64,000 bases of DNA from assembly GCA_027218345.1 (NCBI GenBank), contig GCA_027218345.1_3950.1. One strand, written 5' to 3'. How positions within the stretch are numbered: position 1 is the stretch's first letter; each line of letters begins with the position of its first letter. Positions 3,569-43,180 of this stretch are shown here, piece after piece. The translations under genes and the position numbers were made by a program. The DNA is from a phage. The notes under the pieces were generated by a model that searched no databases, had not been told where the DNA came from, and saw only the letters and a program-made list of their open reading frames with translations.

Positions 3569-4264
3569 TCAATGTTTAACTAACATGGTTTTAATGTGTG
3601 GAAGGATTCTGTTTACCTTCTGAACATTCTTCTCTGTATCTTCTATAAAGCATACTATATTAAAGTAAGGAAGAATGCAAGACTGAATCATCCTCACTTT
3701 CAAACTTTCTGCACTTATAGAGTTAGCTCCAAAACCACGCATAAAAAGCATGTAATCATGCTCTATGTAATGCCTTAAAAACATCTCAGTAGGTACTCTC
3801 TGAGATTCACCTCTCGCTGTCAAGAGTCCAATAGTAGCATGATTAGAGATTGCATCAATAATATTGAAAACATACGTTGGTTTTGCACTTACAGAATCAA
3901 GCAAATTAGTGTACTGTGAAAATGAACCATCAATCAGTTCCGTTGAGCAATCTTCGTGATTAAAATTTGTAAGAACACCATCAATATCTGCTAAGATGAG
4001 GTTACCTTTTTCTACAAGGTCTTTATTGACTATGACTAAACTGTCACGTCTTACACCTATAGATTGCCCCGTCTCTTTATCCACAACGTTCACAATCGGT
4101 TCTGAAGTGTGGAACTCTTCAAGTGAACATACAACTTCTCTTGCAGTGTCTTCAAAATCCCTGCACTGTTCTGGAGTCCATACACAGGAATCAAGACCTA
4201 ACTCATGAGGATGTAAGTCATAAGCATGACACAGGACTTCATCAGACTTTCTTAATTTTTTCAT
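3569..4264 (-). CDS. hypothetical protein, possible HAD-type phosphatase/nucleotidase
   Basis: DIDGVL (DxDG motif I-like) and LLTARGE; weak assignment. Confidence 0.3.
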   Translation of the reverse strand: MKKLRKSDEVLCHAYDLHPHELGLDSCVWTPEQCRDFEDTAREVVCSLEEFHTSEPIVNVVDKETGQSIGVRRDSLVIVNKDLVEKGNLILADIDGVLTNFNHEDCSTELIDGSFSQYTNLLDSVSAKPTYVFNIIDAISNHATIGLLTARGESQRVPTEMFLRHYIEHDYMLFMRGFGANSISAESLKVRMIQSCILPYFNIVCFIEDTEKNVQKVNRILPHIKTMLVKH

Positions 4265-6043: not shown

Positions 6044-6074
6044 ATTTTAAGGGGCTTTGAAGCCCCTTGTCAAA
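6044..6074 (-). promoter_or_regulatory. candidate sigma70-like promoter with GC hairpin in spacer (TTGACA-N19-TAAAAT)
   Basis: Minus-strand TTGACA at 6069-6074, TAAAAT at 6044-6049; spacer contains GGGGCTT-CAA-AGCCCC hairpin; upstream of rIIB-like gene. Confidence 0.3.
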
Positions 6075-8472: not shown

Positions 8473-8649
8473 ATTACTTATTAAACATTTTACCAGAACC
8501 ACCACACATAGGGCAACAACCTGCTCTTGTATACCCTTCTCCGTTACAGTAGTCACACTTCTTGTGTTCTGCAAAGTACTTACAAAGAAGATAAACAAGG
8601 ACTGCTACACTACCAAGTGACAGTAAAATTTCTATCCAATATGCTTGCA
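8473..8649 (-). CDS. small membrane/zinc-ribbon protein (58 aa, below track cutoff)
   Basis: ATG ORF MQAYWIEILLSLGSVAVLVYLL...CDYCNGEG...CCPMCGGSG; one TM plus CxxC...CxxC. Confidence 0.3.
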
Positions 8650-8967
8650 TGACTCACCTCTCATATTTTTGTAAAGGATAAAGCTTCTGTCATGGACGAT
8701 ACTTGTAGATACTGCAAAGTTACTTTCAAGCATCTGTTTGTTTGGATTGTAGAAGCTTTTTTTAAACTCGTCAAGTGCAAATTGGTGATTATCTGGAAGA
8801 CCTTTTATGCAGACCTTTATTGTGATTGCTGCTGCGACCTTGCCAGTCAGTTCTTCTTTAGCTGCTACTAAAATTTTGTTAAGGAACTTATGACCATCTT
8901 CAGGATTCTTGATGTTCTCCCAACGTTCTTCTAAGATAATGTTGATGTTCATCTCTTTTATTTTCAT
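8632..8967 (-). CDS. hypothetical protein
   Basis: 111-aa ORF. Confidence 0.4.
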   Translation of the reverse strand: MKIKEMNINIILEERWENIKNPEDGHKFLNKILVAAKEELTGKVAAAITIKVCIKGLPDNHQFALDEFKKSFYNPNKQMLESNFAVSTSIVHDRSFILYKNMRGESCKHIG

Positions 8968-8984
8968 AGTTTTCTCCAGAAATT

Positions 8985-9006
8985 AAAAAGGCTCCCGTAG
9001 GAGCCT
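8985..9006 (-). terminator. rho-independent terminator (AGGCTCC-CGTA-GGAGCCT)
   Basis: Same stem sequence as hairpins at 3065 and 40080; A-run on plus side; downstream of nadV. Confidence 0.55.
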
Positions 9007-9020
9007 CTTATCATATACTT

Positions 9021-10802
9021 TTAAAGCTGCTTGTCAATATTATTTCGAATATCGCCAAGAGTTGTGTAACCGAACTGCTCAGAGTCACTAAAGACTAAAC
9101 GTAAAGCACAAGCTGGATGTTCAAGCACATCTGCAAAGCTCTGGAATCCATAGCCATCTACAGCTTTCAGCTTATCACCATCCCACATGGGCGCTACACC
9201 ACCAAAAGCAGACTTCTTAACACCGCTATCTGTTTTAGGGTCTTTTGCAAGCATAATCTCTTTACCACCAATGCTTGCAAGAGTTGCTTTGACAGCAAAT
9301 GCAAAGGTGTCACGAGTCATGTACTGGTAAGTATAAGAACCTACACCAAACACTACGTTAGAGCTTGCAAAACCCATTTCATACAGACGCTTCAGGATTT
9401 CGTTTGCACGTTCCAACGTGATAGAGTCACCATAGATAAGGCCGATATGTTCATCCAGTACCTTAAAACCTTTAGAGTTGATAGTTCCTCCAAAGATGTT
9501 ATACAAGGTCTTAATAGCTCCATCAATCTCTGCTACAGGACGTGTTACAACGTTTGCAGAACCAACCATATAAGCATTCTTCAACATCACTGTATCAGCA
9601 ACTTCAAAGTCTTCTCTGTCAACAACCATTTCGTAGCCTTCTGACAGTAGCCATCCAGCAATGCCATAGTTGATGTTTTCAAGCTTCATGTTCAGAACAG
9701 CATTCAACATTGTGTCACTAGCTTCCAGCTTGCTTAGGTGCTCGTAATAAGCCTTCTTAGCACACTCTAAGTGGATTGCTTTATAGCCTGTGACAATATG
9801 TACAGGGTCTCCAGAGTCAGGGCGAATTACCAGTTTGCCGTCACGTTCCATAATCTCTTTACGAAGTGCTGGTAATATAACTGATACAGTTCTCCAGAAG
9901 TTATAAGTATCTGAAACAACACTTGCAATACCAGTTGGGTAAGTTTCTGTTAAGAAACGACGGAAGGTTTGTAACTCACCTTTAAAGCGTCTTTCTTCTT
10001 CAATCAACTCATTACCACCTTCCCAAGCAATGTTTGCACACATTACAGAGTGTTCAGTGGCTGGTACAGAACTGCCAATATCAGAAATTGGGTAAGACTG
10101 TCCATAGATGCGTTTAGCTGTATATACAGCAGGGAAGCTATCAGTTCCTTTAAAGCTGGTTAAGTGACCTACAGCATTAAATGCGTCATCGGTAAAGCCG
10201 GACATACCACGCATAGCAAAGTCATGGCACTGATAAGGTAAATGTAAGTCATTGTCACAAGTAAGGTCAGCCCACTTCTTACAGATGCGTTTATAATGCA
10301 ATGCAATAGTCGCAATGGTACAAGCCTTCCAAATCTCAGCAGAGAAAGCATCTTCCAGATAACCTGCTACCCAATGGAAACCTGAAACAGTGTTCTGGAA
10401 GACAATCATTGGGACACGCATAGGGACAACTGTGCCTTCTTCTACAGCGTATACTTCAACTGGTAGATAACCTAAGTCGTGAAGTGCTTCCCAATGCTCT
10501 CGACCGATAGCATCTTTACCCAGAACACCATTCATGACTTCTAAGATTTCGTCAATTGCTTCTTTTTTATCACGTTCAAAGAAAGTGGCGTTCCAGTGGT
10601 CTATCAAGTAATCTTTAACAAAACGTTGAATACCAAAAGCCACTACACCATCAATTGCTAAGGGGCTGTTAAACCATTTATCACTACGTGGTGTCAGGTT
10701 GAACATCAAATATTCTGTTGCACTAGGATATTGATTGATATGGCCTGATTTGTAGCAATCTGCGTTAAGTCCTGCTGGAACTGCATAAAGTGATTTAGTC
10801 AT
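9021..10802 (-). CDS. nadV: nicotinamide phosphoribosyltransferase (NadV/NAMPT-like)
   Basis: NAPRTase-family features (N-terminal ...NADCYKSGHINQYP..., about 590 aa); start set at internal Met because the track start lies inside an intergenic hairpin. Confidence 0.6.
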   Translation of the reverse strand: MTKSLYAVPAGLNADCYKSGHINQYPSATEYLMFNLTPRSDKWFNSPLAIDGVVAFGIQRFVKDYLIDHWNATFFERDKKEAIDEILEVMNGVLGKDAIGREHWEALHDLGYLPVEVYAVEEGTVVPMRVPMIVFQNTVSGFHWVAGYLEDAFSAEIWKACTIATIALHYKRICKKWADLTCDNDLHLPYQCHDFAMRGMSGFTDDAFNAVGHLTSFKGTDSFPAVYTAKRIYGQSYPISDIGSSVPATEHSVMCANIAWEGGNELIEEERRFKGELQTFRRFLTETYPTGIASVVSDTYNFWRTVSVILPALRKEIMERDGKLVIRPDSGDPVHIVTGYKAIHLECAKKAYYEHLSKLEASDTMLNAVLNMKLENINYGIAGWLLSEGYEMVVDREDFEVADTVMLKNAYMVGSANVVTRPVAEIDGAIKTLYNIFGGTINSKGFKVLDEHIGLIYGDSITLERANEILKRLYEMGFASSNVVFGVGSYTYQYMTRDTFAFAVKATLASIGGKEIMLAKDPKTDSGVKKSAFGGVAPMWDGDKLKAVDGYGFQSFADVLEHPACALRLVFSDSEQFGYTTLGDIRNNIDKQL

Positions 10803-10816
10803 CTTGTAATCTCTCT

Positions 10817-10840
10817 CAAAAGTGGGGCTTACAAGCCCCA
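10817..10840 (-). terminator. hairpin (TGGGGCTT-ACA-AGCCCCA) between prs and nadV; terminator/attenuator candidate
   Basis: 7-bp GC stem with A-run on plus side (U-rich tail on minus transcript). Confidence 0.4.
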
Positions 10841-10849
10841 TGTAATAAT

Positions 10850-11749
10850 TTAATCAAGGTTTGCTACAGTTACTTGACCATAGTGTGACAAACCACGGTC
10901 TTTCGCTTCACCTAAAGTATTTGTAGTGTAGATATGGTCGATTCCGTTGTCAAGCAAGTTTTCAACACCTTTAGAGAAAATCCCATGTGTTACATATAGT
11001 TCCACACGTTTTGCACCTGCTTCACGAAGATGTTTGGCTGCTTCTATGAAGGTTCTACCACCATCACAGATATCATCCAGAATCATGACGGTTTTATCTG
11101 TCAAATCAACATCATCAAGGATTCGCATACCAGTAATTTCACCAGTCTTAAGGTTACGCACTTTAGACATTGTGATGTATGGTTTATCCACCTCTTTAGC
11201 GGTCTCTGCAACCTTCTTAGCAGCACCTGCATCTGGGGCTACTAAGTAATCAATCAGTGGGTCATTTGCATAGTGGACTGCAATTTCCTTTTGAGGAATA
11301 CTCTGGAAGCAATTGAAAAGGTTATCTGGAACGTAACTGTGAGGGTCAACTGCACAGACTGCACCAAATCCCATTGCATTCACCTGTTTAGCAAAAACCT
11401 TTAAAGCTGCTGCATCACCTTTAAACATGTGACGGTCATATCGTGCATTTGGTAAGTAGTAAAAAATGACAGTCTTCAGGGCATAATCATGAGGAACTAA
11501 ATCATCAATTGATTCTTTAGCAAGTGCCACAGCAAACAATGTGTCTTTGTCATAACCCTTTACAATCATAACCACATTGTTAATAGATGATGCTGCATAA
11601 GCAGTAAAATCAACAAGCTCTTGTGAAAAATGTCCACCAATCTCACCAGAAGGGAATTGGATGATGTTAAACTCTTCTTCATGAGTTCCTTTAGTCGGTG
11701 AATGAACTGTAACACGGATAGATGTTTTCATAGTTTCTCTCTTAGTCAA
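10850..11749 (-). CDS. prs: ribose-phosphate pyrophosphokinase (PRPP synthetase)
   Basis: PRTase signature VMILDDICDGGRT and Prs-like N-terminal half; 299 aa. Confidence 0.7.
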   Translation of the reverse strand: MTKRETMKTSIRVTVHSPTKGTHEEEFNIIQFPSGEIGGHFSQELVDFTAYAASSINNVVMIVKGYDKDTLFAVALAKESIDDLVPHDYALKTVIFYYLPNARYDRHMFKGDAAALKVFAKQVNAMGFGAVCAVDPHSYVPDNLFNCFQSIPQKEIAVHYANDPLIDYLVAPDAGAAKKVAETAKEVDKPYITMSKVRNLKTGEITGMRILDDVDLTDKTVMILDDICDGGRTFIEAAKHLREAGAKRVELYVTHGIFSKGVENLLDNGIDHIYTTNTLGEAKDRGLSHYGQVTVANLD

Positions 11750-12020
11750 AAGTTACGTTTGTTACTGCCATTGCAGATTTGCATTTTGCAGGGTCTACAA
11801 CGTGATAAAGTACACTACAGTTACCTGTGCTGTCTGGGACAGGCTTTACCCATTGATGCTTTATAGTTGGCTCTCCTAAGTCTTTGTAAGAACCATCTGT
11901 AAAGTTGTTTACCATCTCAAGTGCAATTGGTTCTGGAACATGACCGCGTATCATGTACATCTCACAACCATTACCACCTTCACTGACTAATGGTAAAATC
12001 TCCCACTTTTCTTTAGCCAT
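11742..12020 (-). CDS. hypothetical protein
   Basis: 92-aa ORF. Confidence 0.35.
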   Translation of the reverse strand: MAKEKWEILPLVSEGGNGCEMYMIRGHVPEPIALEMVNNFTDGSYKDLGEPTIKHQWVKPVPDSTGNCSVLYHVVDPAKCKSAMAVTNVTFD

Positions 12021-12528
12021 TGTAAGTTGCTCTATAAACTGTCTCGAACTTCAACAGGAGAGATATTGCCAAATCTGTATAGTTGTTGTCAAGCACATCT
12101 GGCATATTATTTTTGATATATTTCTCTTGCTCTTCATAGGTCATCTTAGGGATACTTAGGAGGCTATCTCCTTGCTTCTGGTTATCAGCTTTAGTTTGGA
12201 TAAACCAGTTCGCACAGTGATGTTCACCACCTTTTGTAACAGGTTTGTGGTGGCCTAGTGTAAATGTTTGCTTACCCGTATACCTGCAAAGATTGTTCAG
12301 TGTTGCAATGGTGTTCTTCACAACACACCATTCATACAGGTTATCTATTGTGTAGTGTGGGTAATAACGGACAAGTGCTCTTTCACGGAAGTTATCATGA
12401 TTCCAAAGAACCATGTGATTAGAATTTGAAGGGTCATATTTGTGGGAGTCTATAAACTCTTGACGCTCATCAAAGCTGAGTCTTAGAACTGACATTGCAA
12501 CCGAACGTTTCAGGTTTGACAGGTACAT
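12013..12528 (-). CDS. hypothetical protein, possible HNH-like nuclease
   Basis: NNLC...GHHKPVTKGGEHH segment loosely HNH-like; inserted between prs and nrdG region; weak. Confidence 0.3.
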   Translation of the reverse strand: MYLSNLKRSVAMSVLRLSFDERQEFIDSHKYDPSNSNHMVLWNHDNFRERALVRYYPHYTIDNLYEWCVVKNTIATLNNLCRYTGKQTFTLGHHKPVTKGGEHHCANWFIQTKADNQKQGDSLLSIPKMTYEEQEKYIKNNMPDVLDNNYTDLAISLLLKFETVYRATYNG

Positions 12529-12579
12529 TTTACCTCCAAAATAAAAAGGGAACCTTTACAGTCCCCTTATAGTATCTGT

Positions 12580-14821: not shown

Positions 14822-15769
14822 TTACATAGAAACTCTGTCACGAATCTCAGCAATTTTTGCATCATTCATTCGGGATTCACCTTTAATCTTAGTCCATCCA
14901 AGATAACCACACACCCTGTTAATCACAGAGATATCATGTGAATGGCAAACCTCACATTCTTCAACATCAGCCTTTGGTCTGTTACCACAATGCTCACAGA
15001 TTGCTAAGTCAAAGTTAAGCCCCTGATAAAAACCTTTCAACATCCCTCTGGTAATACAACTTTTAAGTGCTGTTAAGTTTTCTGGGTTAGCTACCCTTAC
15101 ATACTGGATTCTGCCACCTCTACAGATGTGGAAGAATGGCTCTTCTAAGTCCTGCTTCTCAAATGGTGAAATGTTTGCTGCAACATTCATATGGAAACTG
15201 TTTGTAAAGTATTCCTTGTCAGAAACGCCTTTGATAACACCAAACATATCTCTGAACTGTTTTAGCTGAGTTCCACACAATGACTCTGCTGGAGTGCCAT
15301 ATACTGCATACAGGAAGCCATCTTCATTCTTAAACTCTTCAGTTTTCATGTTAATGTATGCCAGAACATCGTATGCAAAACTAGAACTTCCAACTTCATG
15401 GAGTCGTTTACCTTCAGCAAGAACAGATAACTCATCAAGCGCAGTAACCCCAAAAGAAGCTGTGAAGGACTTCACGATATCCCAACCAACCTTGTCGGTA
15501 GGTTTTTTAGTTCCTTTGTACAAACCACCTTGTGTGAATGCAAGAGGGTTAGAACTTGCTGGCATATTAGCAATCATTTCGTAGCGTTTCTTGTGGAAGC
15601 TGCGAATCATCTCTAGGTACTTATCAAGCTCTTTCCAGAAATCTAAACCATTCTCTTTAGAATACTGGTAAATCATTGGTAAGTTCAAAGATACCGCACC
15701 AATGTTAGCACGACCTACATAAAACTCTTCACCATCTTCGTTATGGTATGGTGATAAAAATGCTCTACA
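14822..15769 (-). CDS. nrdD: anaerobic ribonucleoside-triphosphate reductase, exon 2 (C-terminal part with glycyl-radical site)
   Basis: Frame stays open upstream of the track start back to a Cys codon near 15767-15769 (CRAFLSPYHNEDGEEFYVGRANIGAVSLNLP...); C-terminal Zn ribbon CEHCG...CEVCH and RVCGYLG. Confidence 0.7.
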   Translation of the reverse strand, partial: CRAFLSPYHNEDGEEFYVGRANIGAVSLNLPMIYQYSKENGLDFWKELDKYLEMIRSFHKKRYEMIANMPASSNPLAFTQGGLYKGTKKPTDKVGWDIVKSFTASFGVTALDELSVLAEGKRLHEVGSSSFAYDVLAYINMKTEEFKNEDGFLYAVYGTPAESLCGTQLKQFRDMFGVIKGVSDKEYFTNSFHMNVAANISPFEKQDLEEPFFHICRGGRIQYVRVANPENLTALKSCITRGMLKGFYQGLNFDLAICEHCGNRPKADVEECEVCHSHDISVINRVCGYLGWTKIKGESRMNDAKIAEIRDRVSM

Positions 15770-16085
15770 CTTGTTGTTCAGGTAAGTTCGCTACGCTTAC
15801 CCCGCTTTATTCAAGCTGCTTACTGTCGCCAGTAAGTCCAGACTATATCTTCTACTTATTTCTAAGTAGCGTACCATTTCGAGTCGCTTGACCCTACACC
15901 GCTACATTCATCACGGTTAGTCGTTCGGCATTTAGATGTATTCAAACTCATATTCGAAGTTACTTGGCATGTAAGACTCCTATGTTGTATAGTTTCTTAC
16001 ATCGTACATCATTTAGCACAGGATTGTCTACTCTTGTAGAGTTTCCCTGTTTAGGCACGTTTTAGATGAGCTATAGAGCTTGTTA
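15770..16085 (-). ncRNA. group I self-splicing intron (about 315 nt, no ORF) interrupting nrdD
   Basis: P-like AACAGGGAAAC, Q-like CAATCCTGTGC, S-like AAGATATAGTCTGG (plus 15841-15852 is its complement), 5' exon ends in U, intron ends in G; boundaries +/-2 nt. Confidence 0.65.
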
Positions 16086-17282
16086 ACCCATCGGCGAAAT
16101 AACCTTGCCAGAACGCTCAAAAGCTTCTGCTACAGCACCATGACCAGATACACTTAAGAAATCTGGATACATCGCTTTAGAGCAACACTCAATAGCTTTA
16201 CTGTACAGGTGACTTTGACAGATATTTTCATCATGTCTCTTCTGGTCATAAATATAAACCAGTTTAGGGAATACAACAGGCTTCTTGCTCTTACCTTGTC
16301 CATTCATACGAACATCTAGGAGAGTACTTGCAATCATGTATTGTAGCCGGTTGTCTTCATTAGACATATCTGAGTCAAGTAAACCAAATGTCAAAGTTGT
16401 GAATGCGAAATCACCACGGCTGCAAGGTACGGTGTTTAGCTTCATTTCAAGTGATTGAAAACCTTGAGTCAATTCAAGCTGTAGCTGCTCCATGACATAA
16501 TTATGGTAATGTTCTTTAGGAATACCATAAGATGCTGCTTTCTCAGCATGGTAACGTAGAGACTTCTTAGCATACGGTACAAGTACCTTATCAATCTCTG
16601 CTAAAGTAAAGCCACCAAATTGCTGTGCAGTTGCTGAAAGAACTACATCACCAATAACCTGTAAGGCTGACAGCACAGACTTTGGTTCACAGTATTCAAT
16701 GCCAGACATTTCAAAGCCACCTTTCAGTACTTTACCAATGTCAAACAAGCAACAGTTAATACCACCAAAAATTAGGTCTCTTAAATCATGGATATAGATA
16801 AACCCTTTTTCAATGGCTTCAAGTTCCTCTGGTGTTAAGTGGTACTGTTTAAAGATTTCTTTAGTCAGATAACCACGAATAATTGAACCTTTTGTAGAAA
16901 TTAAACTGCTGTCAAAATTAGCGTTTTCTCTGTCACCTAAGAAGAGTGTATCTTTGGTCTTCTGGTAGAGTTCATCCCAATTTTGAGCAACCTCTTTACG
17001 GTAATTTCTATATGTTGAGTAAGACTCATAAATCTCGTGATTGACTTCTGCCAAAGCACCCTCAACAATACTGTGAATATCATTTACTGAAACGAGTAAA
17101 TTATTCTGCTTAGTGGACTTTACCAGAATCCTCATAAATGCTGACTCAAGAGCTTGGGTAACATCTGGTGGAAGCTCTTTATAACCAACTCTGTTAGCTG
17201 ACTTTGTGACTGCTACTAAAACTTTTTTGATATCAGGTTCTTCGAGTGAGCCATTCTTTTTAATAATCTGTACTTTGTTCAT
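16086..17282 (-). CDS. nrdD: anaerobic ribonucleoside-triphosphate reductase, exon 1 (N-terminal part with ATP-cone)
   Basis: 399-aa ORF ending ...VISPMG then stop that falls inside the intron; class III RNR-like; continuity with exon 2 after intron removal. Confidence 0.7.
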
Positions 17283-30210: not shown

Positions 30211-30467
30211 GTAAGCCTCTTTTAAGTAACTATTAAGTTTTAATCTTTTATCTTAACGTATTCTATACGTTATACTTTAAAGCTTTTTAAAAGCTATTAA
30301 ATAATCTTTTAAGAATTTTAAAGTATCTGTATAGTTAAACTGTTAAGTAACCTTTTAAGTAAAAACCCACTTCGCAAAGATTAACACCTTGTCAAGTACA
30401 TTGTCAACTTGCTTTTTATAATTTTTTGCAGTAATGTATGTGGTTAATGATTTTAGAGGGAGTAAAA
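30211..30467. promoter_or_regulatory. AT-rich divergent intergenic control region with repeated TTAAGTAA motifs
   Basis: Lies between divergent minus (29788-30210) and plus (DNA polymerase) genes; TTTTAAGTAA-like motif at about 30219, 30342, 30352; TTGTCA and TATAAT hexamers present but spacing not canonical. Confidence 0.35.
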
Positions 30468-32610
30468 ATGGAAAACGTAGATTTTAAAAACTTACATTTG
30501 GTTGGCGATACAGAAACTGATGGTTTACTCCTTGAGTTCACTAAAGTACACGTAATGGCTTTCGCAGACTATAAATCTGACGATGAAGAGCCACCTGTAT
30601 GGGTCTTTACAGATGAGCCTATCCTCGGTCACAAGTACACTAAGTACATTAAGGGTGGTTTACGTGAAGGTGTTGAGTTTGCGTTAAAGGCAAAACGACT
30701 TTGTATCCATAACGGCCTCGGTTATGACTGGTGGGTCTTCAATCACATTGCACCGGATTTATGGAACTTTGATAATCCAAAGTGTAAGCCGTGGAGTAAT
30801 TTCTTTCAGGATTCTCTTATCCAGTCTCGTGTTCAGTGGATGGATAGACCAACTCCAAAGGGTTATAAAGGTGCTCATGGCTTGGCTGCATGGGGTGCTC
30901 GTGTTGGTGTCCGTAAACCAGAGATTGAACATTGGGGTGTGTGGAATGCAGAAATCTTCACTCGTGTTGTGGAAGATATCCGTATTAACGCCAAAACTAA
31001 ACGCGCACTAGATAATGAATATCTCAAGCTGAAGAAGTGTGGCATAGACACCTATGAAACCTATATGCGAGCTAAAGAAACATCTTTCTGGATGAGTCAA
31101 CAAGCTATCAATGGTTGGAAAGCTGATAAAGAGCTTATGGAGTTCCATGTAAAGGAACTTGACAAGTTGACTAATGAGCTTGCTTCGGAAGTTGAACCAC
31201 ATCTTCCTCCAACTATTAAGACCAAAGGTAAAGTTACTGGGGAAGAGTTTGCAAAAGCTTGGAATGAGTATGTTGAAGCATTTGGTCATGCAGATGGACT
31301 GAAGAGAATCACCAAGTACCCTAAGACAAAGTATCGTCAGCAGGTACGTAATGGTGAAATGCAGACATATGAAATCAAGCCATTTGGTAAGCCAACTACA
31401 AAGATTTTTAACATTGAAAAGAGAAATTGCTATACGCCAACCAACTCTGTAACTGGTGAAGAGTACAAGGAAGGTTTTGTAGCAATGAAGGATGCTCGTG
31501 CAATTTGCAATGAGTTGAACGCAAAGATTGGTAAGAAATGCAAAGACTGGAAGCCAGTAAAAACAGTCAAAACTGTGAAGTACTATAACAGCCACGTTGT
31601 TAACCACTTTGAACTTGAGTCAAGTCGCTACACAGGATTGATTGATGCACCATATACACCAATTGAGTTTGAAGTTTCTCGTATGACTCAGGTAGCAGTT
31701 GTTAAAGACTACTTGAAATCAGTTGGTTGGATTCCAGATGACTGGAACTACAAGAAAGACTCAGATGGTCGCCCTGTCAAAGTTTGTCGTTTCAAAGACA
31801 ATAAAAAGATGATTACAAAGCATCCTAAGTGGCAGGAGATGGTTGAGCGGTGTGGTTTGAGCTATGTTGAGCATGAAGGTGTACAGTACATTGAGCATAA
31901 CTGGTCTGTGAAGAAATACACAGATTTGCTTGAGCCTTGCTTAATCCGTACTTCACCAAAACTTACTGAATCATCTTATGATACGATTGAAGGTGAACTT
32001 GGACAGAAGATTGCTAAGTACTATACTTTGATGCACAGACGCAGAACTATTGAGAACTCAAAGGATGATGAAAAAGGTTGGTTGAACCAGATTCGTCCTG
32101 ATGGTCGCCTTAGTGCTGGTGCAATGGTATTTGGTACTTCAACTGGACGTATGACACAATATGGTATTGTAAACGTACCGTCTGGTGCTGCTGTCTATGG
32201 AGCACCTATGAGGGCAGTGTGGATTTGTGAAGATGGAACCAACGTAGTCTCCGTTGATATGAACTCAGCCCAGCTAGTTCTTCTTTGCAACTTTATGGGT
32301 GATAAAGAGTTCACTAAAGCAGTAACTGAAGGTAAAGAGTCAGTAGAATTTACCAAGCAAGAAGATGGGAGGTATTATTGCAAACATCTTGATAAGTACC
32401 TTAATCCAGAAACTGATAAGTATCTTCGTTATGATGCTGAGAATGACCTCTATGAGGTCTACACAGGGACTGATGCGCATACACTGAACAGTATTTACTT
32501 TGGTCTGAACAAGGAGGAAGATATTGTTCGTTGTAGGGAGACACAGGATGAGGAACTTCTTCACGAGATTACAAAAGGCCGTAAGAAAGCCAAAAATGGC
32601 ATTTATGCGT
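30468..32610 (+). CDS. family A DNA polymerase, exon 1 (3'-5' exonuclease and polymerase domains through motif B start)
   Basis: RBS AGAGGGAG then ATG at 30468; DTETDG exo motif; ends ...RKKAKNGIYA within motif B; track ORF continues 13 codons into intron before stop. Confidence 0.75.
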
Positions 32611-32877
32611 CAGTGGCGCATGTAAAACGTTGTGAATTGCTGGAAGCCTAAGTCTGTAAAGATATGGTAATCAGCAGCGAAGCCTCTTAAGAGGAACGTT
32701 CAGAGACTATCGAAAAGCATACTTAACGTATGAACTGAGTAGAGTAGGGTGGTAAGCTAATGACCATCCCAAGTGCAACGGTAGCACCACTGCTACGTGA
32801 TATAGTCCGACACTCCGTAGAAATGCGGAGAAGTTCATAAGAGAACTGGTACACCTTGCGAGTGTATTGACCAGATG
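32611..32877 (+). ncRNA. group I self-splicing intron (267 nt, no ORF) in DNA polymerase motif B
   Basis: P AATTGCTGGAAG 32635-32646, Q AATCAGCAGC 32669-32678, R GTTCAGAGACTA 32698-32709, S GATATAGTCC 32799-32808; P1 exon ATGCGT with intron GCGCAT (U-G at splice site); terminal G at 32877. Confidence 0.8.
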
Positions 32878-33434
32878 TATTGTTCGGGGCTGGAGACGAG
32901 AAGTTTGCAAAAACTATCAAGGCATCATCTACGGAAGAAGGTGCATTGACTAAACAAACTTACTATATGCGTCTGCCAAAGATTAAGAAGTTACTTGATA
33001 GCTTAGAAGCCGATTTTAAGGCGTCTAAAAAGGCTCTGGAAGAGGTTTTTGGGAAGAATTCTTCAATTGCTAAAGGTGGTTATATCAGGGTCGCTGGAGC
33101 ATGGATATGGTGCAAATCTCCACATAAACTACTGAACTACCTCCTGATGAGTTCGGAAGCACAGATTCAGAATGAGGCCATCAACCTAGCAGCAAGAAAA
33201 GCCTGTGAAGATGGCCTGACAAAACTGAATGCTCGAAAACCAGCTATCGGAGCAAGGTTACTTCTGGCATATCACGATGAAAATAGTTGGGAATGTCCAG
33301 AGGGTATGACACATGATATGAAAGCAATTGCTGACTGGATGTATGGACAAGCTTCAAAAAACTTAGGTTTGAGGAAAGAAACACTTGTAACTGGTACAGC
33401 AAAGGTTGGTAAGAGCTGGTATGAGGTACATTGA
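32878..33434 (+). CDS. family A DNA polymerase, exon 2 (motif B remainder and motif C)
   Basis: Joined reading gives ...KNGIYA-LL-FGAGDEKFAKTI, matching T7 gp5-type motif B KxxIYGxLYGAGDEK; ...LLAYHDENSWECPEG resembles motif C (HDE). Confidence 0.75.
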
Positions 33435-33437
33435 TTA

Positions 33438-33971
33438 ATGGATTTAATTTTACAAAAACGTTTAAAGGAGCTGCTGCACTATGACCCCGAAACAGGGGTC
33501 TTTACTTGGCTTCGTAGAGAAGGTAAATCAAGAGCTGTTAGTGTTTTTAACAGTAATTATGCAGGAAAGGTGGCAGGTAATATCCAGACTGACTCAAGTG
33601 GTCATAAACAGATTAGTATCTATTTTGACAAGAAAGCACATAAAGCACACAGACTCGCATGGCTTTACGTGTATGGCAAGATGCCAAAAGGTATCATTGA
33701 CCATATCAACGGCGACTCACTTGACAACAGGATTGTAAACTTAAGGGAAGCAGATGATTTTCAAAGTGCTTGGAATAAAGGTAAACCAGTCACCAATAAA
33801 TCTGGGTACAAGGGTGTAAGTCTTAAGAAGAAGTCTGGTAAGTGGGTCGCACAGATAAGTTATAAAGGTAAGAAGATGTTTTTAGGTTACCATGACACAC
33901 CTGAAGAAGCCCATAAAGCTTACTGTGAAGCTGCTATTAAACTCCACGGAGAGTTTGCAAAACTAAGTTGA
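33438..33971 (+). CDS. HNH endonuclease with AP2 DNA-binding domain (free-standing homing endonuclease candidate)
   Basis: HNH core HRLAWLYVYG...IDHINGDSLDNRIVNLR and AP2-like GYKGVSLKKKSGKWVAQISYKGKKMFLGYHDTPEEAHKAY. Confidence 0.6.
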   Translation: MDLILQKRLKELLHYDPETGVFTWLRREGKSRAVSVFNSNYAGKVAGNIQTDSSGHKQISIYFDKKAHKAHRLAWLYVYGKMPKGIIDHINGDSLDNRIVNLREADDFQSAWNKGKPVTNKSGYKGVSLKKKSGKWVAQISYKGKKMFLGYHDTPEEAHKAYCEAAIKLHGEFAKLS

Positions 33972-43157: not shown

Positions 43158-43180
43158 TTAAAAGGGGCTATCAAGCCCCT
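43158..43180 (-). terminator. hairpin (AGGGGCT-ATCA-AGCCCCT) between the two tail fibre genes
   Basis: 7-bp GC stem with A-run on plus side; followed by RBS AAGAGGA before 43143 start. Confidence 0.45.

Follow-up and report, generated by a model that had tools for sequence, protein, structure and literature searches.

The NARP1 pathway, by which a phage rebuilds NAD+ after attack by an NAD+-depleting defence, was discovered and named in the operon formed by genes 79-80 of phage Bas63 (JohannRWettstein) (bioRxiv 10.1101/2024.02.11.579819). Here we analysed a pair of adjoining genes in a phage DNA stretch of 64,000 nucleotides (GenBank assembly GCA_027218345.1, contig GCA_027218345.1_3950.1), which is called the window below and whose first letter is position 1. 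With a probability of about 93%, the two genes form the NARP1 operon of a Felixounavirus. The first gene, adps (10850..11731, - strand), is assigned from orthology, profile scores and active-site residues to an ADP-ribose (ADPR) pyrophosphokinase, that is an ADPR-pyrophosphate (ADPR-PP) synthetase, of 293 aa with a PRPS-like fold; the second, namat (9021..10802, - strand), is assigned from orthology, structure match and core and clamp residues to a nicotinamide ADP-ribose transferase of 593 aa with a Nampt-like fold. The system is already known and published as NARP1, and the window carries near-identical copies of that pathway's genes.

The published work on this pathway is the basis of the comparison. 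It was first proposed, and then refuted by the same authors, that the operon works by way of nicotinamide mononucleotide (NMN), with a ribose-phosphate pyrophosphokinase (Prs) making phosphoribosyl pyrophosphate (PRPP), a nicotinamide phosphoribosyltransferase (Nampt) making NMN and the host finishing NAD+ (bioRxiv 10.1101/2024.02.11.579819). Wild-type Bas63 still overcomes the SIR2-HerA defence in a ΔpncC ΔnadR host (bioRxiv 10.1101/2024.02.11.579819), and since the operon is active in that host it does not work through NMN and a host adenylyltransferase. Deletion of genes 79-80 lowered the plating of Bas63 about 20-fold on SIR2-HerA cells with loss of the partial NAD+ maintenance, and an ion of m/z 720.010, identified as ADPR-PP, was seen only with the operon present (bioRxiv 10.1101/2024.02.11.579819). 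The Adps of SpβL1 was tried with ribose-5-phosphate and with ADPR, from which the authors conclude that ADPR is used instead of ribose-5-phosphate (bioRxiv 10.1101/2024.02.11.579819); conversion of ADPR and ATP to ADPR-PP and AMP, with no use of ribose-5-phosphate, is reported for both the SpβL1 and the ICP1 enzymes (bioRxiv 10.1101/2024.02.11.579819; PMC13586617). The Namat of SpβL1 joins ADPR-PP and nicotinamide to NAD+, and only NAD+ was formed when PRPP and ADPR-PP were both offered (bioRxiv 10.1101/2024.02.11.579819). This preference for ADPR-PP over PRPP as donor is described for SpβL1 Namat only, and Namat homologues also form NMN from PRPP in vitro, about half as fast as human NAMPT (bioRxiv 10.1101/2024.02.11.579819; PMC12774641). 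The Adps clade is almost phage-only, with linkage to Namat in 97% of its members, and the supplementary tables list wV8, HY02 and JLBYU32 as carriers of Adps together with an "Adps-associated" Namat (bioRxiv 10.1101/2024.02.11.579819).

The window is part of a Felixounavirus-type coliphage genome and spans about 64 of its roughly 86-88 kb. The region of the pair has 95% DNA identity to Felixounaviruses, e.g. JLBYU32, wV8 and HY02, and 259 phage records match it. It is collinear with Bas63 (MZ501086.1) through nrdG, three small genes, a 171-aa gene, a 92-aa gene, adps-namat, a 111-aa gene, a 58-aa gene, rIIA and rIIB, this shared order being named nrdG ... 0077, 0078, adps, namat, 0082, 0083, rIIA in Bas63. 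Both genes lie next to each other on the (-) strand, adps being followed by 47 nt and then namat. Adps is identical to the product of Bas63 gene 79 at 230/293 residues (78%) and to wV8 Adps, an entry among the Namat-associated Adps proteins in Table S1 of Osterman et al., at 282/293, while Namat is identical to the product of gene 80 at 583/593 residues (98%). The two loci are of the same genus-level type and share the flanks, the protein sizes (293/593 aa), the intergenic hairpin, the Shine-Dalgarno sequence and the start; the window differs in having a wV8/HY02-type adps allele, in lacking bas63_0081 and in an additional upstream ATG at 10841 that is not conserved. Sequence comparison thus establishes the orthology and synteny of the pair as well as its signature motifs and gene limits, and we infer by analogy that its own proteins would perform the same chemistry as their orthologues and homologues.

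The first-pass annotation had read the pair as adjacent NAMPT-like and ribose-phosphate pyrophosphokinase-like genes, and this holds at the level of profiles, as two long (-) strand open reading frames (ORFs) are present at 10850-11749 (299 aa) and 9021-10841 (606 aa) and searches with Pfam, NCBIfam and PHROG agree on both. The genes themselves are shorter than the longest ORFs, extending over 10850-11731 (293 aa) and 9021-10802 (593 aa). Adps starts at ATG 11731 with a GAGAG Shine-Dalgarno sequence 5 nt upstream, and TTG 11749, with which the longest ORF begins, shares nucleotides with the stop codon of the 92-aa gene that precedes it. For namat the start is ATG 10802, which has the Shine-Dalgarno sequence GAGAGAG (10811..10817, - strand) 8 nt before it, in an arrangement like that of Bas63 and Mordin; ATG 10841, which opens the longest namat ORF, has no Shine-Dalgarno sequence and lies inside the stem-loop at 10823..10840, which covers its UG. 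The annotated products in Bas63 and Mordin are of 293 aa and 593/605 aa, and the counterpart of ATG 10841 is missing from both. The earlier suggestion of a downstream Met start, made from the overlap of this hairpin with the longest start of the gene then called nadV, was therefore correct, and the hairpin supports it.

For the first gene, the 299-aa ORF matches Pfam Pribosyltran and Pribosyl_synth and PHROG 619 "ribose-phosphate pyrophosphokinase". Among the named NCBIfam Prs models only the broad subfamily model TIGR01251 ribP_PPkin was passed (123.6 bits, cutoff 113), all others being far under their cutoffs, with PRK00934 as the best equivalog (105 against 296) and PRK01259 as the next subfamily (91 against 297). 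With the ICP1 and SpβL1 Adps sequences taken from the supplement of Osterman et al., phmmer scored four Adps proteins at 133.5 (Pseudomonas-phage), 112.2 (ICP1), 100.1 and 87.4 (SpβL1) bits and E. coli Prs at 49.6 bits, the last alignment covering the C-terminal two thirds only; all matches in the PDB copy searched were generic Prs chains, the best with 70 bits. A hidden Markov model (HMM) built from four non-Ounavirinae Adps proteins reached 205.6 bits with the window protein, compared with 94.7 bits with E. coli Prs. By bit scores, then, the window Adps is closer to phage Adps proteins than to cellular Prs. Pairwise identity was also considered as a discriminator and fails, as it is 29% to E. 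coli Prs (over 195 aa) and 31-38% to Adps proteins; the separation of Adps from Prs accordingly rests on bit scores, the HMM and the C-terminal truncation. The window protein ends in ...GQVTVANLD and has no counterpart of the C-terminal tail of E. coli Prs (the α11-α12 region is absent), and loss of this PRPS α11-α12 module is described as a defining signature of Adps (PMC13586617).

The active-site residues point in the same direction. Residues F26, R97, H131, D167, K190, D219, D220, D223 and F228 of the window Adps correspond to F18, R87, H121, D161, K185, D212, D213, D216 and F221 of ICP1 Adps, and in the ADPR-binding and catalytic set (ICP1 F18, R87, F92, H121, D161, K185, D212, D213, D216) eight of nine are identical. 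The PRPP-type loop (PP loop), MILDDICDGGRT, occupies residues 216-227 of the 293-aa protein (11051..11086, - strand), where the first-pass annotation had seen a PRTase motif, and aligns with D212-D213-I214-C215-D216...S220 of ICP1 Adps. In Adps this loop holds the β,γ-pyrophosphate donor of ATP and not the phosphate of ribose-5-phosphate (PMC13586617). Its DDICDG part is common to the window, ICP1, Pseudomonas and eugene Adps proteins, followed by GRT in the window and by AAS, GAT and GYT in the others, and SpβL1 has SSFGGT. With ICP1 Adps (PMC13586617) the window protein thus shares acceptor and catalytic residues, the DDICDG letters of the PP loop, a KxRxxxTGxI β-hairpin and the loss of α11-α12 at 33% identity, and its N-terminal segment is longer and different; with SpβL1 Adps it is 31% identical, and CDGGRT stands against SSFGGT in the loop. 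E. coli Prs has the same fold and the same general chemistry, pyrophosphoryl transfer from ATP, but the window Adps lacks its C-terminal module and has CDGGRT in place of IDTGGT.

For the second gene, the 606-aa ORF matches Pfam NAPRTase/NAMPT_N, NCBIfam PRK09198 (464.6 bits, cutoff 405) and PHROG 448 "nicotinamide phosphoribosyl transferase" (674.7 bits). Among solved structures the best matches are SpβL1 Namat (9W5W/9W5X, 434 bits), Xanthomonas Nampt (176) and human NAMPT (140), so that human and Xanthomonas Nampt, with the same fold and the same general chemistry in which nicotinamide displaces pyrophosphate, stand at 140-176 bits against 434 bits for Namat. The protein hence aligns best with a different enzyme of the NAPRTase family, acting on another substrate, from the one first named. 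Its catalytic core, including the Phe/Tyr' pair that sandwiches nicotinamide and the catalytic His, is intact, D15, Y17, F195, R198, D221, H251, R327 and D329 being equivalent to D13, Y15, F189, R192, D215, H245, R306 and D308 of SpβL1 Namat. The helix of the selectivity clamp is found as GSYTYQYMTRD at aa 488-498 (9309..9341, - strand), an instance of GSxΦxΦxΦTRD, which is specific to Namat and absent from Nampt and whose aromatics stack on the adenine of ADPR-PP or NAD+ (PMC12774641). Tyrosine is present here at motif positions 3, 5 and 7, and Φ1, Φ2 and Φ3 are T, Q and M, Φ3 being mainly N or V in the published description (PMC12774641). The clamp loop, PRSDKWF at aa 38-44 (10671..10691, - strand), follows the published rule of R at the third position, or Lys/Tyr with the next residue stacking as in Bas63 (PMC12774641): after P-R come S-D-K-W, with K42 third and W43 fourth, at the position of SpβL1 R40, in the same letters as Bas63 Namat, and stacking by W43 is predicted.

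Compared with SpβL1 Namat (PMC12774641), therefore, the core residues, the clamp helix, the stacking residue of the clamp loop and the order adps then namat are shared, while the window protein has a clamp loop four residues longer with K-W for R40, the replacements F392 to Y, A362 to S and S190 to A, and two insertions. The larger insertion, of about 83 aa (aa 344-426; 9525..9773, - strand), falls in a gap of the alignment with SpβL1 Namat and NAMPT, and the second, of 15 aa near aa 255-275, is likewise seen relative to both. With tblastn the 83-aa insertion was found in 254 records, always within Namat genes, from phages of Felixounavirus, Mooglevirus and Suspvirus type; it matches no Pfam family, is 47% identical in Mordin and diverges faster than the Namat core. 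It is no distinguishing mark of the window, because Bas63 Namat has the same insertion.

Taken with the published enzymology, the following pathway is proposed. An NAD+-depleting defence such as SIR2-HerA, type I Thoeris, DSR1/2 or SEFIR cleaves NAD+ into ADPR and nicotinamide. Adps (10850-11731) would then convert ADPR and ATP to ADPR-PP, and Namat (9021-10802) would let nicotinamide displace the pyrophosphate of ADPR-PP, giving NAD+ in one step. The second reaction would be Nampt-type chemistry in which the adenine-binding clamp favours ADPR-PP over PRPP, with no NMN intermediate and no adenylyltransferase. The earlier proposal that the pair serves phage NAD+ reconstitution against NAD+-depleting immunity was right in this respect, and agrees with the sensitivity to SIR2-HerA of Bas63 deleted for the orthologous operon; the chemistry proposed with it was wrong.

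Several points weigh against this assignment. The chemistry is drawn from SpβL1 Adps, SpβL1 Namat and ICP1 Adps, which are not Felixounavirus enzymes and of which the two Adps proteins are only 31% and 33% identical to that of the window, so that the reactions are carried over by analogy. In the window Adps, M102 stands in the place of ICP1 F92, which contacts adenine, and the closest Phe is F103, one residue on; the PP loop reads CDGGRT against CDGAAS in ICP1; and 22% of the residues differ from the Bas63 protein, mostly in the N-terminal third. Namat carries the uncharacterised insertion at aa 344-426, and a minor NMN flux is possible if the window enzyme, like its homologues, keeps the PRPP-to-NMN side activity seen in vitro.

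The profile labels, which read Prs and NAMPT, are also what a true PRPP synthetase and a true NAMPT would give, together making NMN from nicotinamide, ribose-5-phosphate and ATP and leaving NAD+ to be completed by the host (NadR or PncC route) or by a phage NMN adenylyltransferase (NMNAT) encoded elsewhere. This was the reading of the first-pass annotation, and the in vitro NMN formation by Namat homologues speaks for it; however, it has already been refuted for the Bas63 orthologues, as the Bas63 operon, whose Namat and Adps are 98% and 78% identical to those of the window, protects ΔpncC ΔnadR cells and ADPR-PP accumulates with it. The conclusion of the authors that Adps uses ADPR and not ribose-5-phosphate, the exclusive formation of NAD+ by Namat when ADPR-PP is present, and the Namat clamp motif and Adps truncation in the window proteins themselves further stand against it. 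The following scans of the window turned up no NMNAT or Nudix partner such as NARP2 has. The Pfam scan of ORFs of at least 55 aa in 1-40673 gave no CTP_transf_like or NUDIX family; this early half was scanned as concatenated pseudo-proteins, leaving out rIIB, nrdB and, as separately scanned, the NARP1 pair and rIIA (rIIA had no Pfam match). The NMNAT motifs GxFxPx[HT]xGH and [SI]STxxR were absent from all six frames of the window, and for the structural half (40753-63875) the best 25 of the 58 Pfam families matched in the whole window were all structural or of nucleotide metabolism, with none of NMNAT kind. The earlier observation that the window has no NMNAT motif was thus right; its explanation by a last step that is host-supplied or encoded elsewhere was not, as the Namat family makes NAD+ directly and host NadR/PncC are dispensable for Bas63. 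Since Namat itself makes NAD+, absence of an NMNAT is expected in NARP1, and the seemingly missing last step is no gap, because no NMN adenylyltransferase is needed. We therefore hold the NMN route to be highly improbable for this pair. A purely metabolic role, in which the two genes raise the PRPP or pyridine nucleotide supply for phage DNA synthesis and have no part in immune evasion, could be argued from their place within an early nucleotide-metabolism block near nrdG/nrdD/nrdAB, thymidylate synthase, DHFR and a dNMP kinase. It is hardly credible, given that Bas63 Δ79-80 and wild type were compared on empty-vector cells too and the roughly 20-fold loss was reported only on SIR2-HerA cells, and given the nearly phage-only, Namat-linked Adps clade.

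NARP1 is also to be separated from two related systems. NARP2 (KVP40 Nampt/NadV with the Nmnat-Nudix protein NatV) shares with the window pair the Nampt superfamily and the purpose of countering NAD+ depletion, but it uses PRPP via NMN, needs a phage NMNAT and has no Adps, whereas the window has Adps, the Namat clamp motif and no NMNAT found within the scans given above. NARP1-AP, consisting of Adps, the Macro phosphatase Adpp and Namat in Vibrio phage Gary (bioRxiv 10.64898/2026.01.28.702374), shares the Adps-Namat core, but no Macro gene lies within two genes of the window pair, and the only Macro ORF found (752-1537) is 7.5 kb off.

The pair is an example of misleading profile labels, "Prs" and "NAMPT" together suggesting an NMN route with an apparently missing enzyme where the pathway is a phage-specific rebuilding of NAD+ in two steps from ADPR and nicotinamide. 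Carriage of NARP1 predicts resistance to type I Thoeris, DSR1/2, SIR2-HerA and SEFIR, which turn NAD+ into ADPR and nicotinamide, and, if the distant Macro protein does not make up for it, sensitivity to defences of the aRES type, whose action leaves ADPR-1''-phosphate. Such predictions may be used for host range and for the choice of therapeutic phages; nothing new is added to the biology of the pathway.

The stem-loop between the two genes, UGGGGCU-UGUA-AGCCCCA followed by UUUU (10818-10821), is located at 10823..10840 (- strand), between the adps stop codon (10850-10852) and the namat Shine-Dalgarno sequence. The same GGGGCT-N4-AGCCCC pattern occurs in three copies in the window (6051-6066 between rIIA and rIIB; 10824-10839; 43164-43179) against 0.01 expected by chance, and all three are intergenic, just past a stop codon and before the Shine-Dalgarno sequence of the next gene. 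Because of its recurrence at two further intergenic sites we take this hairpin for a generic element between genes of these phages, which would act either as a weak terminator or in stabilising RNA. A dedicated attenuator or terminator lowering the expression of namat relative to adps, which the first-pass annotation had put forward as possible, would fit the stable 7 bp stem (in the centroid structure), the U4 run after it, a stem kept invariant in Bas63 (loop UGAA) and in Mordin (loop GAAA), where the locus has only 75.6% DNA identity, and a promoter-like TTGACA-17-TACACT inside the adps 3' end (10953..10925). We consider it unlikely, however, as the same hairpin stands at rIIA|rIIB and at 43164-43179, the T tract is too short and the hairpin fails the terminator scan, the local folding z-score is only -1.7, and covariation gives no support since the stem never varies. 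Rfam has no family for it either, the only hit being a chance-level Histone3 match on the downstream terminator. In Salmonella virus VSe102, moreover, an HNH endonuclease gene (L003 2356-2847) lies exactly between adps and namat and the hairpin is absent there, and in LinBro an HNH endonuclease gene is also present within the locus. Homing apparently takes place at the adps|namat junction, and the pair need not be contiguous.

Other signals outline the transcription unit. On the (-) strand the 171-aa gene, the 92-aa gene, adps and namat come after a terminator-like hairpin (12568..12546) and a promoter-like site, and a strong intrinsic terminator-like hairpin with a 10 bp stem and a T tract (8986..9009, - strand), 12 nt past the namat stop codon, marks the end of the unit. 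The gap from namat to the next gene is 53 nt (8968-9020) and contains, besides this hairpin, a promoter-like site; the window lacks bas63_0081, the hypothetical gene of 114 aa that comes directly after namat in Bas63 (L001 17509-17853).

Within adps itself, the first ~600 nt (11130-11731 against L001 14747-15350) have 62-81% DNA identity to Bas63, against 93-98% in the rest of the locus. This pattern indicates a recombination mosaic with a junction inside adps, and that wV8-type and Bas63-type alleles circulate in Felixounaviruses, the window allele being of the wV8/HY02 type.

The Macro ORF mentioned above (752-1537, - strand) encodes 261 aa, with an N-terminal Macro domain (PF01661, 24.5 bits, cutoff 22; PHROG 335 "phosphatase") and, on the C-terminal side, an extension of some 100 aa. 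Its orthologue in Bas63 is bas63_0095, annotated "putative phosphatase", and the ORF is situated about 7.5 kb and some 15 genes downstream of the pair. Adpp is an ADPR-1''-phosphate phosphatase that extends NARP1 to NARP1-AP and defeats aRES; the survey of NARP1-AP covered two genes around NARP1 only and lists no Escherichia/Salmonella phages (bioRxiv 10.64898/2026.01.28.702374). An unlinked Macro gene would be missed by such a survey, as its search stayed within two genes of NARP1. Felixounaviruses may thus run a split NARP1-AP with this protein as an unlinked ADPR-1''-phosphate phosphatase, an idea that we treat as possible but doubtful; if true, the Macro protein would feed ADPR to Adps and let these phages escape aRES too. 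With the Adpp proteins of Vibrio phage Gary and Pseudomonas phage PN09 it shares 28% and 34% identity, and tblastn gave 2,980 phage records of equal similarity, including T4-like phages, which had not come up in the first survey with the NARP1 locus as query. The ORF was dropped as a specific relative of Adpp, being no closer to Adpp than to T4-type macro proteins. The best PDB match is OARD1/TARG1, and tRNA repair or ADP-ribosyl hydrolysis is no less likely as its role, since the gene lies near a polynucleotide kinase gene (3569-4264).

In the neighbourhood of the pair, the flanking ORFs 8632-8967, 11742-12020, 12013-12528 and 8474-8650 have no Pfam match, and by Pfam no RyR-domain or other NARP-associated accessory gene was found beside it. 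The 171-aa gene (12013-12528, - strand), two positions upstream of adps and apparently in the same transcription unit, weakly resembles an HNH endonuclease (PHROG 2214, E=2e-6) and is kept in Bas63 (0077) and Mordin.

Two group I introns were also seen elsewhere in the window. One (15819-16193, - strand; RF00028, 54.3 bits, gathering score 50) splits nrdD into the ORFs 16083-17282 and 14822-15688; nrdD of Bas63 is annotated as a joined coding sequence with a homing endonuclease inside, and the window gap holds no ORF of at least 55 aa. The other (32548-32830, + strand; RF00028, 62.8 bits) has the two DNA polymerase A ORFs, 30438-32651 and 32880-33434, on either side, and an HNH_3/AP2 homing-endonuclease-like gene (33438-33971) comes directly after the second of these ORFs.

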